Shown one piece after another: positions 54,607 to 60,074 of a DNA stretch of 64,000 nt. Position 1 is the first letter of the stretch; the number at the start of each line of letters is the position of its first letter. Made by a program: the position numbers and the translations under genes. Under the pieces are notes generated by a model that was not told the origin of the DNA, searched no databases, and saw only the letters and a list, made by a program, of their open reading frames with translations. The DNA is taken from the NCBI GenBank assembly GCA_045654345.1, contig JAZOND010000027.1, forward strand, positions 19,889-83,888, written 5' to 3'. The DNA comes from Alistipes sp. Its GTDB lineage: Bacteria > Bacteroidota > Bacteroidia > Bacteroidales > Rikenellaceae.

Positions 54607-56505
54607 CTATCGTTTCATCTGCTCCTGCTGACGCATAAGCTCCTCATAACGCTGCTGGAAGCGTGACTTCTTACCCTTGGTGTTAGCCATCTTGGAGTTA
54701 ATCTTGGCTCTTACCTTCTCGTCATCGACAAAGTAACGGATACCATACATCATTACCATTGTGATGATATTTGAGAGCAGGTAGTAGTAGCAAAGACCAC
54801 TTGAGTAGCTATTGAACCAGAAGAGGAGCATCAGCGGCATCATATATACCATCATAAACTTCATACCTGGCATCTGTGGCTGTGTAGATGCGGTCTGCTT
54901 ATAGTTCAGATAAGAGTAAGCAAACATAACAACGGTCATCAGCAGACAGAATAGTGAGATATGGTCGCCATAGAATGGGATATTGAACGGCAAATCGAGA
55001 ACACTATCATAAGATGAGAGGTCATCGCTCCAGAGGAATGACTGACCACGAAGCTCGATAGATGCAGGGAAGAAGCGGAACATCGCAATCAGAATCGGCA
55101 TCTGAATAAGCATAGGCAGACAGCCGCTCATAGGGCTGATGCCCGCCTTATTGTAGAGCTCCATAGTAGCCTGCTGCTTCTTCATAGCATCCTCCTGACG
55201 AGGGTACTTGGCATTGATTGCATCAAGTTCAGGTCGTACTGCACGCATCTTGGCAGTAGAGAGGTAGCTCTTATATGTAAGTGGCGAGATAAGCAGCTTA
55301 ACCACAAGAGTAAGGATGAGGATAATAAGACCGAAGCTCTCGATATACTTGCTCAGGAAGTTAAAGAGCGGAATTACCAACCAGCGGCTGATATATGTCG
55401 AGAAGATCCAACCTAACGGAATAACGCGCTCGAGTGAGAGGCTCTCACCATTGCTATCTACCAACTCCTTGAGTACAGTAAACTTATTTGGACCTAAGTA
55501 GAAGTTGAAGTTATAACCCTCAGTCTGCGGAGTGTAAGGCACAGCGGCAACCATTGAGTAATCCTTCATAAAGCCCGACTTCTCAGGTGCAGTGGTATAG
55601 GCAAGGTCTGCATATGTAAAGTTTACATTCTGCGGAATGATTGCCGAGGTAAAGTACTGCTGCTTGAAAGCTACCCAATCAACTGATGTAGATACATTAT
55701 CAGACTTTGAGCCCTCAGAGACACCCAGATCCTCAATACCTGTCTCACCTGGGTGGCGGTAGTAGAGGTTGGTGTACATATTCTCGTTCTTATAACTACG
55801 CTCGTTCTGGTAGCTGCGATTGCTCCAAGCAATGCCGATAGAGCTCTGGTTTGCCATAATAGGCGCCAGATTGTTAAAGCGAACATCGAAGTCTACGAGG
55901 TAGTCGCGCTCCTCTGCCTTCTGATTATAAATGGTATATACAAAGTCGAGTGACTCGCCACCCTTAAATGGCAGACGGAAGGTCACGCACTGCTTATCCT
56001 CAAGAGTCTCAACAGGGAGCAGAGTGAAGTTATGCTCGATGGTAGATACCTTTGCATTCTTCAATCCGTCCTTGATAAAGAAGCTCATATCGAAGCGCGC
56101 ACTCATTGGGTCGAAGAGCTTAACCAGCTCATTACGCTCCTCCTTTGGTGCATACTTGGTGTGCTGCTTAAGGGTTGCATCTATAATCTGACCACCGAGA
56201 GTCGAGAACTTGAGTGTCAGATAGTCGTTCTCAACAACAGTCTCTGCAACCTCTGTGCCATCAAGGATAAGAGGATCTACAACCACTGCTGGGGCAGCCT
56301 CTGTTACACTCTGAGCCTCAGCCTGAGTCTGCTCTGCCGCTACAGCAGAAGCCTCAGCAGCTACAGCCTCAACAGTCTGCTCGAGGGCAAGTTGCTCGTT
56401 GTACTTCTCCATCTGATAGTTGTTATACAACATATAGCCGAAGAAGACTACGCCGATAAGGATAAATCCGATAATTGATAGTTTATTTGTTCCTTTATTT
56501 TCCAT
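54607..56505 (-). CDS. yidC: Membrane protein insertase YidC
   Basis: N-terminal TM, periplasmic domain, FYLGP, GLIILILT, GCLPMLIQMP, SGLCYYYLLSN. Confidence 0.95.
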   Translation of the reverse strand: MENKGTNKLSIIGFILIGVVFFGYMLYNNYQMEKYNEQLALEQTVEAVAAEASAVAAEQTQAEAQSVTEAAPAVVVDPLILDGTEVAETVVENDYLTLKFSTLGGQIIDATLKQHTKYAPKEERNELVKLFDPMSARFDMSFFIKDGLKNAKVSTIEHNFTLLPVETLEDKQCVTFRLPFKGGESLDFVYTIYNQKAEERDYLVDFDVRFNNLAPIMANQSSIGIAWSNRSYQNERSYKNENMYTNLYYRHPGETGIEDLGVSEGSKSDNVSTSVDWVAFKQQYFTSAIIPQNVNFTYADLAYTTAPEKSGFMKDYSMVAAVPYTPQTEGYNFNFYLGPNKFTVLKELVDSNGESLSLERVIPLGWIFSTYISRWLVIPLFNFLSKYIESFGLIILILTLVVKLLISPLTYKSYLSTAKMRAVRPELDAINAKYPRQEDAMKKQQATMELYNKAGISPMSGCLPMLIQMPILIAMFRFFPASIELRGQSFLWSDDLSSYDSVLDLPFNIPFYGDHISLFCLLMTVVMFAYSYLNYKQTASTQPQMPGMKFMMVYMMPLMLLFWFNSYSSGLCYYYLLSNIITMVMMYGIRYFVDDEKVRAKINSKMANTKGKKSRFQQRYEELMRQQEQMKR

Positions 56506-56511
56506 TTCGTT

Positions 56512-58131
56512 TTATTTATTTTCAGAATATTTAAGTGCAGCCGCTACAAAGTCTACAAACAGCGGTGCAGGGTGCTCTACTGTACTCTTGTACTCAGGGT
56601 GATACTGGGTAGCGATAAACCAAGGGTGATTTTCAAGCTCGAGTACCTCAACAAGCTGGGTCTCTGGGTTGATACCTACGCACTTCATACCTGCAGCCTC
56701 GAATGCCTCGCGATACTCGCTATTGAACTCATAGCGATTGCTATGACGCTCCATAACTGAGGTGATGCCGTAAGCCTTAGCAGCCTTTGACTCAGGATCG
56801 AGGGTACATACATAGCCACCGATACGGCGAACATCGCCCTTATCACTCTTGCTGTCCTCCATAAGGTCGATAACAGGGTGCTTAGTGGTGTTATCAAGCT
56901 CTGAAGATGCTGCATCAGCATAACCCAACACATTGCGAGCAAACTCTACAACTGCGCAGTGCATACCCAGACCTACACCGAAGAATGGGAGGTTATTCTC
57001 ACGAGCATACTGAACAGCGGCAATCTTACCATCTACGCCACGACGACCAGAGCCTGGAGCAACGAAGATACCAGATACGCCATCAAACAGTTCTGCAGCA
57101 CTCTCTGCTGTAACCTTCTCTGCCTTAACATAACGAACCTTAACCTTGCAGTCGTTCATAGCACCTGCGTGGATAAATGACTCGTTGATACTCTTATAGG
57201 CATCTGGCAGCTCGGTATACTTACCAACAAGGGCAACCTCTACGAACTTGGTAGGGTTCTTAACCTTGTCAACAAATGCACGCCAAGCGCAAAGGTCTGA
57301 CTCGCTATTCTCTGTTGGTAGGCCGAGACGCTGCATAACTACAAGGTCCATATTCTGCTCAAACAGACGCAGTGGCACCTCATAGATTGTAGGCATATCT
57401 ACTGACTCGACTACCGCCTCAGGCATAACATTGCAGAAGAGGGCAATCTTACGCTTGATAGATGTCTCGAGTGGATTCTCGGCACGAAGCACAAGCACAT
57501 CCGGCTGAAGACCATTCTCGAGCAACGCCTTTACAGAGTGCTGTGTAGGCTTGGTCTTAACCTCACCCGATGCTGCAAGATATGGCACCCACGCAAGGTG
57601 TACAAGGGCTGTATTCTGGTAACCCAAAGAGTTACGCAGCTGGCGAACAGACTCGATAAATGGCAGTGACTCGATATCACCAACAGTACCACCAATCTCG
57701 GTGATAATAATATCGAACTGCTTAGTCTGACCATTGAGCTGGATGCGACGCTTAATCTCGTCAGTAATGTGAGGGATAACCTGCACGGTCTTACCCATAT
57801 AGTCACCACGACGCTCCTTCTCGATTACGGTCTTATAGATCTTACCTGTGGTAACGGTGTTCTTATTCGAGGTAGCGATAGATGTAAATCGCTCATAGTG
57901 ACCAAGGTCGAGGTCTGCCTCTGTACCATCATCAGTAACATAACACTCACCGTGCTCGTATGGGTTAAGAGTGCCCGGATCAACATTGATATATGGGTCA
58001 AACTTCTGGATTGTTGTCACATATCCACGAGCCTGCAACAGTCTTGCAAGTGATGAAGAGATAATACCCTTTCCGAGTGATGATGCCACACCTCCTGTAA
58101 CGAAGATATACTTTGGCTTTGAAAGTTTCAT
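56512..58131 (-). CDS. pyrG: CTP synthase with apparently inactive glutaminase domain
   Basis: Synthetase motifs intact (GGVASSLGKG, KFDPYINVDPGT, GGTVGDIES, KTKPTQHS); nucleophile loop reads FGVGLGMH instead of GICLGMQ. Confidence 0.93.
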   Translation of the reverse strand: MKLSKPKYIFVTGGVASSLGKGIISSSLARLLQARGYVTTIQKFDPYINVDPGTLNPYEHGECYVTDDGTEADLDLGHYERFTSIATSNKNTVTTGKIYKTVIEKERRGDYMGKTVQVIPHITDEIKRRIQLNGQTKQFDIIITEIGGTVGDIESLPFIESVRQLRNSLGYQNTALVHLAWVPYLAASGEVKTKPTQHSVKALLENGLQPDVLVLRAENPLETSIKRKIALFCNVMPEAVVESVDMPTIYEVPLRLFEQNMDLVVMQRLGLPTENSESDLCAWRAFVDKVKNPTKFVEVALVGKYTELPDAYKSINESFIHAGAMNDCKVKVRYVKAEKVTAESAAELFDGVSGIFVAPGSGRRGVDGKIAAVQYARENNLPFFGVGLGMHCAVVEFARNVLGYADAASSELDNTTKHPVIDLMEDSKSDKGDVRRIGGYVCTLDPESKAAKAYGITSVMERHSNRYEFNSEYREAFEAAGMKCVGINPETQLVEVLELENHPWFIATQYHPEYKSTVEHPAPLFVDFVAAALKYSENK

Positions 58132-58220: not shown

Positions 58221-60074
58221 CTACTGACCATCAATCATCTTAATCTTTGCCACGATATCGGCAATCTCGCGCTTTGTTGCCTCAATCTTGACCTTAACCT
58301 CAGCAATCATAGACTCTGCGCCCTTTGACTTTGAGAAGAAGCCGATATTATTTTCAAGGGTTGCAACCTCCTGCTCGAGCTGACGCACTCTGTTGTAGAG
58401 TTTCTCGCGCTCGCTACGCAGGCGACGGTCACCACTCTGACGCATAGTATTCACACGCTCCTTAAAGCGGTTGAGCGAACTCTCACGGTCAGCACCGCGA
58501 ACAACTGCAAACAGACGATCAAGAGCCTGCTTATATTGTTTCTGAATCTCATCCTTATGCTTAATAGGCACAAAACCAATCTCGCCCCAGCGACGCTGAT
58601 ACTCCTTAATAGCCTCATAACCGCCTACGCTCACATCGGCGTTATTCATCTCCTCAAGCAGAGCCTGCTTCTTAGCAAGGTTTGCAGAGAACTTATCCTC
58701 GACTGTTGCGAAGTGCGCGCTCTTGCGCTCAAAGAAACGGTCACAAGCGGCACGGAAACGCTGCCAAATAGCATCTGCGTGGCGACGAGATACGGCACCC
58801 ACCTTCTTCCACTGCGCCTGCAGCTCGAGAAGTTGCTCGGTTGCAGCCTTCCAATCCTCGCTCTCCTGCAGCGCCTCAGCAGCCTGACAGAGTGACTCCT
58901 TGAGGGCAAGGTTCTGCTCCATATCGTCCTTAACATCAGCATAGTAGGTGTGCTTAAGCTCGAAGAAACGGTCACAAGCAGCACGGAAGCGGTCGTAAAT
59001 CTTGGCATTATCCTTCTTTGGAGCAAAGCCGATGGTGCGCCACTGAGCCTGAAGCTCGATAAGACGCTCTGATGCACGATTCCACTCCTTATGGTTTGCA
59101 GGAACTACTGCTACCAAAGCCTCAGCAGCCTCACAGAGAGCTGTCTTAGCGGCCAGATTATTAACCTGCTCCTGCTTAAGAGACTCGAAGTGCTCCTGAT
59201 GGCGACGGTTAACCACTGCCGATGCAGCCTTGAAACGCTCCCAGAGCGACTCCTTATACTCTGCAGCCACAGGACCTGTCTCGCGCCACTGCTCGTGGAG
59301 CTTCTGCAACTTACGGAATGCCTCAACAACATTATCCTCTGCAGCAAGAGCCTCAGCAGCCTGACACAGAGCCGTCTTAGCCTCGAGATTCTTCTTCCAA
59401 TCCAAATCGCGCAACTCCTTATTGATATTCACAAAGTCATAAAAACGCTCTACGTGGAGGTTATAGGTCTCCCAAAGGTCGTTAATCTTAGCCTGCGGAA
59501 CCTGACCGATAGCCTTCCAACGAGACTGCAGCTCGCGGAAACGAGCAAAGGTTACATTAATAGTCTCCTCTGCAGAGATAAGAGCCTTAAGTTCCTCGAT
59601 AATCTCCGCCTTCTGACGATAGTTCTCCTCCTTAACCTTCTCGGTCTCGGCAACAGCGCGATCACGACGCTCTCTGTATACCTTGAGGAGCTCCTTAAGG
59701 CGAAGCTCGTCAGCATCAGCCTCAACAACAACCTCCTGACCCTCGGCAGCCTCCTTAAGGCGGCTATCTACCTGAGCGCGGTGAATCTTGTAAAAGGCGG
59801 TCTTAATATCGTCAACATACTGGCGAACATCTGGTACTATATCCTGCTCGAGCAAAAAGGCAAGCATATCAACAAGCTCAGCCTTGCTCTTACCGGCAAT
59901 CTGATACTCTACCTCAACCTCAACAGGCTCCTCGATGACCGCATCCGACTCTAAATCATCGGCCGTACAATCGACATCATTTAAACTCTGATCAACACAA
60001 TTGATAGACGCATCCTCAGCAACGCTGACAACCTCCACATCGGGAGTCTCCATAGGTTTAATAGTAGTAGACAT
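58221..60074 (-). CDS. DUF349 domain-containing protein
   Basis: Repeated LQ.RW..IG.VP...LWERF..A.D.FF units with N(L)..K..LC..AE.L spacers. Confidence 0.88.
   Translation of the reverse strand: MSTTIKPMETPDVEVVSVAEDASINCVDQSLNDVDCTADDLESDAVIEEPVEVEVEYQIAGKSKAELVDMLAFLLEQDIVPDVRQYVDDIKTAFYKIHRAQVDSRLKEAAEGQEVVVEADADELRLKELLKVYRERRDRAVAETEKVKEENYRQKAEIIEELKALISAEETINVTFARFRELQSRWKAIGQVPQAKINDLWETYNLHVERFYDFVNINKELRDLDWKKNLEAKTALCQAAEALAAEDNVVEAFRKLQKLHEQWRETGPVAAEYKESLWERFKAASAVVNRRHQEHFESLKQEQVNNLAAKTALCEAAEALVAVVPANHKEWNRASERLIELQAQWRTIGFAPKKDNAKIYDRFRAACDRFFELKHTYYADVKDDMEQNLALKESLCQAAEALQESEDWKAATEQLLELQAQWKKVGAVSRRHADAIWQRFRAACDRFFERKSAHFATVEDKFSANLAKKQALLEEMNNADVSVGGYEAIKEYQRRWGEIGFVPIKHKDEIQKQYKQALDRLFAVVRGADRESSLNRFKERVNTMRQSGDRRLRSEREKLYNRVRQLEQEVATLENNIGFFSKSKGAESMIAEVKVKIEATKREIADIVAKIKMIDGQ

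Follow-up and report, generated by a model that had tools for sequence, protein, structure and literature searches.

CTP synthase is a glutamine amidotransferase with GTP-gated ammonia channelling, and the locus described here raises the question of how such an enzyme could work once its glutaminase nucleophile is gone. The window, by which we mean the whole 64,000-nucleotide stretch of an Alistipes sp. contig that was analysed (JAZOND010000027.1, positions 19,889 to 83,888), contains a pyrG gene whose product has glycine in place of the nucleophile cysteine of its class-I glutamine amidotransferase (GAT) domain. From the sequence states of this and related proteins, their phylogenetic distribution, the pattern of selection and the lack of a second copy, we infer the activity of the enzyme, the route by which ammonia enters it and the selective reason for the change. 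PyrG probably works, at a rough probability of 0.75, as a CTP synthase that accepts only ammonia and conserves its GAT domain as a pseudo-glutaminase, and it would be part of a change to ammonia that CarA and GuaA have also undergone across the lineage.

The glutaminase and GTP sites of PyrG

The gene, its domains and its altered sites are given below, with residue equivalences taken from an alignment of PyrG to E. coli PyrG.

56512..58131, minus strand: pyrG, 539 amino acids plus stop, the sole CTP synthase gene of the genome
57319..58113, minus strand: synthase (amidoligase) domain, residues 7-271, with all ATP and UTP motifs intact
56545..57210, minus strand: GAT domain, residues 308-529, with the fold kept and the catalytic and ligand sites degenerate
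57049..57051, minus strand: Ser361 (codon TCT), replacing the Phe of lid L11 (E. coli Phe353)
56971..56973, minus strand: Gly387 (codon GGT), replacing the nucleophile Cys (E. coli Cys379)
56959..56961, minus strand: His391, replacing the Gln of GICLGMQ (E. coli Gln383)
56815..56835, minus strand: GDVRRIG, residues 433-439, replacing the CTP synthase (CTPS)-specific GTP-activation motif GG(T/S)(M/L)RLG
56728..56751, minus strand: ERHSNRYE, residues 461-468, replacing ERHRHRYE (465-472), with Arg468Ser and His469Asn
56593..56601, minus strand: His511-Pro-Glu513, the remaining His and Glu of the triad (E. coli His515/Glu517)

The open reading frame (56512..58131, minus strand) reads NNLPFFGVGLGMHCAV, and its nucleophile elbow is PFFGVGLGMH. 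The original prediction, made from the letters of the stretch, had placed a Cys-to-Gly replacement at 56971-56973 and had made five statements about motifs, all of which are correct by the reading frame and the E. coli alignment. Of the triad for glutamine hydrolysis, Cys379-His515-Glu517, the protein has the His and the Glu (His511, Glu513) and Gly387 at the position of the nucleophile. In the E. coli enzyme, Phe353 of lid L11 encapsulates the catalytic triad and contacts GTP, and Thr438 and Arg440 of the CTPS-specific motif GG(T/S)(M/L)RLG mediate GTP activation (PMC9138612). PyrG has neither this Phe (Ser361) nor the motif, its GDVRRIG differing from E. coli GGTMRLG (437-443) by Gly437Asp, Thr438Val, Met439Arg and Leu441Ile, with Arg440 retained. 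The purine of GTP is apparently contacted by Arg468, Arg470 and Glu68 (PMC9138612); the equivalent of Arg470 is present in our PyrG and is R, S or T across the group of close relatives described below. Judged residue by residue, the natural changes in PyrG take away the nucleophile together with some of the residues that make up the GTP site. They also affect Gln383, which we take to be a glutamine contact.

The synthase domain gives 407 bits with CTP_synth_N (Pfam PF06418) at residues 7-271, covering profile positions 1-265 of 265, and its motifs GGVxSxLGKG, EIGGTVGDIES and KTKPTQHS are present and invariant. The C-terminal class-I GATase fold is also recognised (GATase, Pfam PF00117, 104 bits at residues 308-529). 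The protein exceeds the cut-offs of two NCBIfam models, namely 463 for TIGR00337, the PyrG equivalog named 'glutamine hydrolyzing CTP synthase' (725 bits), and 308 for NF003792 (773 bits), and its top PDB matches are bacterial CTP synthases (E = 1e-173). By these matches the protein is an ortholog of the PyrG family, minus the 'glutamine-hydrolyzing' part of the TIGR00337 name.

The glycine codon and the copy number

The genome, 2.10 Mb long and 94% complete, is a draft assembled from metagenome data into 28 contigs, and an error of sequencing, assembly or binning might be suspected in such material. We regard the chance of this as negligible, since the same state is found in the genomes of 13 other species of the group, in ~50 metagenome protein clusters, and in contigs of separate studies. 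Contigs that span the codon, from four runs of four different metagenome studies, read GGT (X3, X5) or GGC (X1, X9), hence always Gly and never Cys. The view of the original prediction that the change is no sequencing error holds. The PyrG sequence is present in metagenomes of gut, bovine gut, pig gut, manure and cow dung.

The same prediction had asked whether a second pyrG exists; the genome has a single pyrG. A PF00117 search of the genome gave three matches only, namely CarA, PyrG and a GuaA remnant, all of them degenerate, and no stand-alone class-I GATase or CTPS-C-terminal-like protein. As the PF00117 set consists of these three, the genome has no glutaminase of that class that could serve PyrG in trans.

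Distribution within and beyond the genus

Among the species genomes of the genus, 307 of 376 have pyrG, and 112 of these 307 PyrG sequences were retrieved and aligned; the counts of PyrG states in the genus refer to these 112. Canonical sequences (PGFG, GICLGMQ, GGTMRLG, ERHRHRYE, HPE) number 64, whereas 38 are without the Cys and/or the His of the triad, and a further 10 are without Phe353 yet keep the triad. Our PyrG belongs to a group of 14 species at 91-94% identity, in which the Cys position is G or N in all. Phe353 has given way to S, A or T there, and each species has its own version of the lid and ERH motifs. The loss noted from the single sequence is accordingly fixed in this group, and the losses of Phe353, the lid motif and Arg468/His469 that were thought to be coordinated with it are seen across the 14-species group.

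When the tree is inferred from the synthase domain alone, this group is enclosed in a well-supported 25-species clade (SH-aLRT 99). In other members of the clade the Cys has been replaced by Ser, Asn, His or Ala, and seven species have the full triad but PGNG, G[NS]xTRLG and ERHFHH[YN]E. A second clade, with 18 sampled species, has PGSG and NPE or SPE (His lost), mostly together with GVGLGMQ, and its three basal members retain the Cys. In a third small lineage of five members, with PG[SA]G, GSTMRRG and ERHHHRYE, the His is lost in 2/5. In each affected lineage, by these states, the loss of Phe353 came before the loss of the triad.

Parsimony on the free tree gives five triad inactivations and nine residue changes in the Cys column. 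We asked whether the two large Phe353-less clades arose independently and make no claim that they did: they stand apart on the free tree of the N-terminal domain, but a constrained tree that joins them is likelier (22 log units; AU p = 0.83). Because the joined-clade tree has the higher likelihood, we limit the claim to at least two losses of Phe353 and at least four independent inactivations of the triad.

Two further positions, both in the synthase domain, differ in these lineages. Our PyrG has Phe44 (codon 58000-58002) for E. coli Leu41 and Met112 (codon 57796-57798) for E. coli Leu109. L41F is found in 43/43 sequences of the two large Phe353-less clades, whereas the 64 canonical sequences have Leu in 62 and Cys in 2; L109M is confined to Phe353-less lineages (2/14, 14/18 and 5/5). 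Both positions lie close to the tunnel or the ammonia entry according to the literature, Leu109 being positioned above the entrance for exogenous NH3 (PMC9138612).

Outside the genus we surveyed the best 150 cluster representatives at 50% identity, a kind of library in which divergent sequences are over-represented. About 20 full-length representatives (at least 490 amino acids) among these have a residue other than Cys in the nucleophile column, and the His is often replaced too. Named cases are a CTP synthase from a metagenome-assembled genome (MAG) of a Clostridia bacterium (MIGMGAQ, RPE) and one from a Muribaculaceae bacterium (ATGQGMQ, CPE).

P0136/P0274 and P0172/P0288: full-length 'CTP synthase' from Clostridia and Muribaculaceae gut MAGs, without the nucleophile Cys and the triad His

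To judge from these sequences, Cys-less PyrG is clearly not confined to the genus Alistipes; a second pyrG in those genomes is possible. In our literature searches neither a naturally Cys-less CTP synthase nor the loss of pyrG from Alistipes turned up, an absence that is no proof.

Selection on the degenerate domain

Pairwise Nei-Gojobori estimates within groups gave a dN/dS of 0.016 for the synthase domain and 0.067 for the GAT domain in the 14-species group, and of 0.03-0.05 and 0.06-0.10, respectively, in four canonical clades, all of these values being approximate as dS within the groups (0.8-1.4) is near saturation. Taken as a whole, the GAT domain is under no less constraint than its canonical counterparts, and the synthase domain is under more, which agrees with the earlier description of the GAT domain as a pseudo-enzyme domain and adds that it is retained under constraint. 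The constraint does not extend to the former site. Twelve former glutamine- and GTP-site positions do not vary among 26 canonical congeners; across the 14-species group the same positions have 2.33 distinct residues on average, versus 1.48 elsewhere in the domain (Mann-Whitney p = 1e-5). This is the pattern of a site released from function within a domain that is still needed. Each of the 48 degenerate PyrGs that we examined has an uninterrupted reading frame of full length. PyrG shares with CPS1 a naturally replaced nucleophile Cys in a domain that is retained under selection.

CarA, GuaA and other nitrogen enzymes

Our genome and four others of the affected clade were set against three canonical congeners, and all three PF00117 proteins are degenerate in the affected clade only. 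The genes for CarA and GuaA lie outside the window.

G000:C25:125433-126521 (L115/L063), present genome: CarA, with GISLGHLL versus canonical GICLGHQ
G000:C25:152040-153344 (L078), present genome: GuaA, 435 amino acids, the sole guaA

CarA has Cys269Ser, Gln273Leu, Asn311Ser and His312Leu, with His353 and Glu355 retained, and its gene is followed directly by a full-length, intact carB. Ser occupies the Cys position of CarA in the sampled members of the 14-species group (Gly in one species); other lineages have Gly with HPE changed to DPT, Asn, or Gly with His changed to Asn. GuaA is shortened to 435 amino acids from about 510. Its GATase part, still fused and conserved, corresponds to model positions 1-76 of 190, the regions of Cys86 and His181/Glu183 being deleted, whereas nothing is missing from the ATP-pyrophosphatase and dimerisation domains. 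The short GuaA occurs in 102 of the 376 species of the genus, at 84-97% identity. Purifying selection persists on the degenerate domains of both CarA and GuaA.

A genome-wide abandonment of glutamine was considered as well and rejected, as PurL keeps GICNGFQ and GHTER, GlmS keeps Cys1 and a type-III glutamine synthetase is present. The class-II glutaminase domain of PurF scores as in the canonical congeners, a judgement made by score and not by its Cys1. The genome encodes two homologs of E. coli GdhA, with identities of 60% and 56%, together with one type-III glutamine synthetase (GlnA) and one GltD-like gene.

G000:C25:116726-118054, C23:36057-37388 and C1:192385-192960, present genome: GdhA, glutamine synthetase and GltD-like loci

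GltB gave no match in the genome. Two GdhA homologs and no GltB match fit the assimilation of abundant ammonia, and they suggest that ammonia is assimilated mainly via glutamate dehydrogenase. With E. coli NadE as tblastn query, a single query only, the genome likewise gave no match.

Genomic context and relatives without pyrG

54607..56505, minus strand: yidC, 6 nt downstream of pyrG, a marker of the conserved syntenic position
58221..60074, minus strand: DUF349 gene, upstream of pyrG, which adjoins yidC directly in pyrG-less relatives
L159-L165: DUF349/yidC junctions of the pyrG-less genomes G127, G231, G223, G108, G266, G110 and G106

The adjacency of pyrG and yidC is also found in the canonical congener G309 and in G138, which puts our gene in the orthologous position. 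The original prediction had taken the DUF349-pyrG-yidC context to mark the main ortholog, and the single copy and the shared adjacency uphold this.

At least 17 genomes of the genus have no CTP synthase domain at all, and 13 of these are at least 90% complete. In the seven pyrG-less genomes that were checked, the DUF349 gene and yidC are directly adjacent, without a gap, on contigs of 43-273 kb. Such a clean absence of pyrG is unusual for free-living bacteria and implies a dependence on cytidine. The pyrG-less genomes carry the short GuaA, and in those examined for CarA (among them G108, G127 and G231) this protein is dead as well. Several pyrG-less species (G280, G005, G169, G273, G190, G262) have carA matches that contain a TAG codon in frame; that of G280, the one looked at closely, lies four codons before the usual end, which makes it an earlier stop and not the mark of a pseudogene. 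The wider pattern, with CarA and GuaA affected and pyrG deleted in relatives, goes beyond what had been noted from the window.

Discussion

We suggest that the synthase domain would still phosphorylate UTP with ATP and then aminate it, and that the GAT domain would be unable to split glutamine, its nucleophile being gone and residues of the glutamine and GTP sites lost. The GAT domain would be kept as structure, since it contributes to the contacts between domains and within the oligomer and to the vestibule and tunnel for ammonia. In an ammonia-rich gut, free NH3 would most likely enter via the opened former glutaminase/GTP cleft. The loss of Phe353 was probably the gateway change, because it would uncap the pocket and end the control by GTP; after it the glutaminase machinery would be neutral, and the triad and the ligand residues could drift and decay. 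As CarA (Cys269Ser), PyrG and GuaA have all lost the glutaminase site, the synthesis of carbamoyl phosphate, CTP and GMP would in this lineage draw on ammonia, with PurL, PurF and GlmS still served by glutamine. An adaptation to an ammonia-rich gut habitat, proposed earlier for PyrG, is plausible.

Several points weigh against this account. The ammonia-only activity of PyrG and of the related proteins is itself something that we infer. His511 and Glu513 are kept in the 14-species group for no obvious reason. The AlphaFold model gives a pLDDT of about 85-95 for the GAT domain and a mean pLDDT of 67 for the synthase domain and, being confident for the GAT domain only, is silent on the tunnel and the port. 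Metatranscriptome matches to PyrG are short contigs of the conserved N-terminal part only, for which relatives are a possible source, and the estimates of selection carry the near-saturation of dS noted above. A Udk (uridine/cytidine kinase) homolog is found in our genome and in most relatives, which would make cytidine salvage possible in the lineage. Because of this homolog, and because at least 17 related species are pyrG-less, CTP may be obtainable by salvage and PyrG may be non-essential.

If that were so, PyrG could be a decaying relic, dispensable in a cell that makes its CTP by cytidine salvage, with the dead site as the first stage of loss. The Udk homologs, the largely complete genomes without a CTP synthase domain and the clean DUF349-yidC junctions are all what such a course would leave behind. 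We nevertheless think it unlikely: none of the 48 degenerate PyrGs has a broken frame, the dN/dS values of both domains are equal to or below those of the canonical clades, the synthase motifs are invariant, and the variation at the glycine codon in metagenomes is synonymous. The strong purifying selection on a GAT domain with a dead site could instead point to a new function, in which the domain binds another ligand or partner in a regulatory or scaffolding role, or has a non-catalytic task such as filament formation, and the recurrent substitutions near the tunnel, L41F in two clades and L109M in Phe353-less lineages only, could be read in the same way. We give this a small probability, because the former site positions vary among close relatives with no new fixed consensus, and the full conservation of the synthase motifs argues for catalysis.

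Glutamine might also still be used, through another nucleophile or by the docking of a separate glutaminase. His511 and Glu513 are kept, and a Cys lies five residues past the lost one, in MHCA, which the original prediction had named as a residue that might rescue the reaction. Canonical Alistipes share this Cys (GICLGMQCA) and the other glutaminase-dead clade is without it (GVGLGMQAS), and we rejected it as rescue nucleophile. The Cys position itself varies freely (G/N/S/A/H), and Gln383, Phe353, Arg468 and Arg470 are lost or variable; a docking partner would have to be found among three PF00117 proteins that are all degenerate and of which none stands alone. We consider continued use of glutamine very improbable, slightly more so than a new function, and return to PyrG as an ammonia-only CTP synthase.

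Such an enzyme would have precedents. CTPS can use exogenous NH3, as the E. coli enzyme does; its G352P mutant has no Gln-dependent activity and is almost fully active with NH4Cl, and GTP blocks the entry of exogenous NH3 at a port of the GAT domain near the GTP cleft (PMC9138612). The glutaminase-defective forms of E. coli CTPS (G352P, and the enzyme with DON-modified Cys379) concern the same enzyme and the same domain, and they lose Gln-dependent and keep NH4Cl-dependent CTP formation. Those forms are laboratory mutants or products of chemical modification, whereas the loss in Alistipes is natural, fixed in many species, and accompanied by losses of Phe353, the GTP-activation motif and Arg468/His469. 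In CPS1 the catalytic Cys is replaced by Ser294, and CPS1 cannot use glutamine, as all other CPS types do (PMC4655335). The CPS1 of ureotelic vertebrates is ammonia-only and keeps an inactive glutaminase-like domain, and our CarA has the same Cys-to-Ser change as human CPS1; CPS1, however, is eukaryotic, fused and in need of N-acetylglutamate, whereas the Alistipes case is bacterial and involves CarA, PyrG and GuaA together. For GuaA, external ammonia serves GMP synthetases in vitro, and ATPPase subunits on their own can likewise convert XMP to GMP with it, without a glutaminase (PMC10526850). The two-subunit archaeal GMP synthetase, whose ATPPase works alone with ammonia, is analogous to our truncated GuaA, but archaea have a separate, active GATase subunit and our GuaA has only a fused N-terminal GATase remnant. 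Finally, ammonia-dependent and glutamine-dependent forms of one amidation reaction both occur naturally in NadE; the ammonia-dependent NadE has no glutaminase domain at all, whereas PyrG retains its pseudo-enzyme domain.

A broader proposal, for which we see somewhat less than an even chance, is that a guild of gut anaerobes, comprising large uncultured subclades of Alistipes together with Muribaculaceae and Clostridia lineages, has repeatedly made PyrG, CarA and GuaA obligately ammonia-dependent while retaining their pseudo-glutaminase domains. In PyrG, loss of Phe353 would have opened the port first and decay of the triad would have come next; these organisms would need high ambient ammonia, and some would have gone on to delete pyrG.

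The Cys-less PyrG family offers a natural system in which to study the entry of exogenous ammonia and the structural role of the glutaminase domain, and the losses in CarA and GuaA alongside PyrG would make a bacterial multi-enzyme counterpart of vertebrate CPS1. We point out that automatic annotation labels such PyrGs 'glutamine-hydrolyzing', and that a glutamine demand would be attributed to them when the metabolism of gut communities is modelled. Glutamine analogues of the DON type are not expected to act on the Cys-less enzymes via the usual Cys. Attempts to cultivate these uncultured Alistipes may have to supply ammonium at high levels, and cytidine in the case of the pyrG-less species. 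The system is thereby of interest both for the enzymology of amidotransferases and for the physiology of gut microbes.

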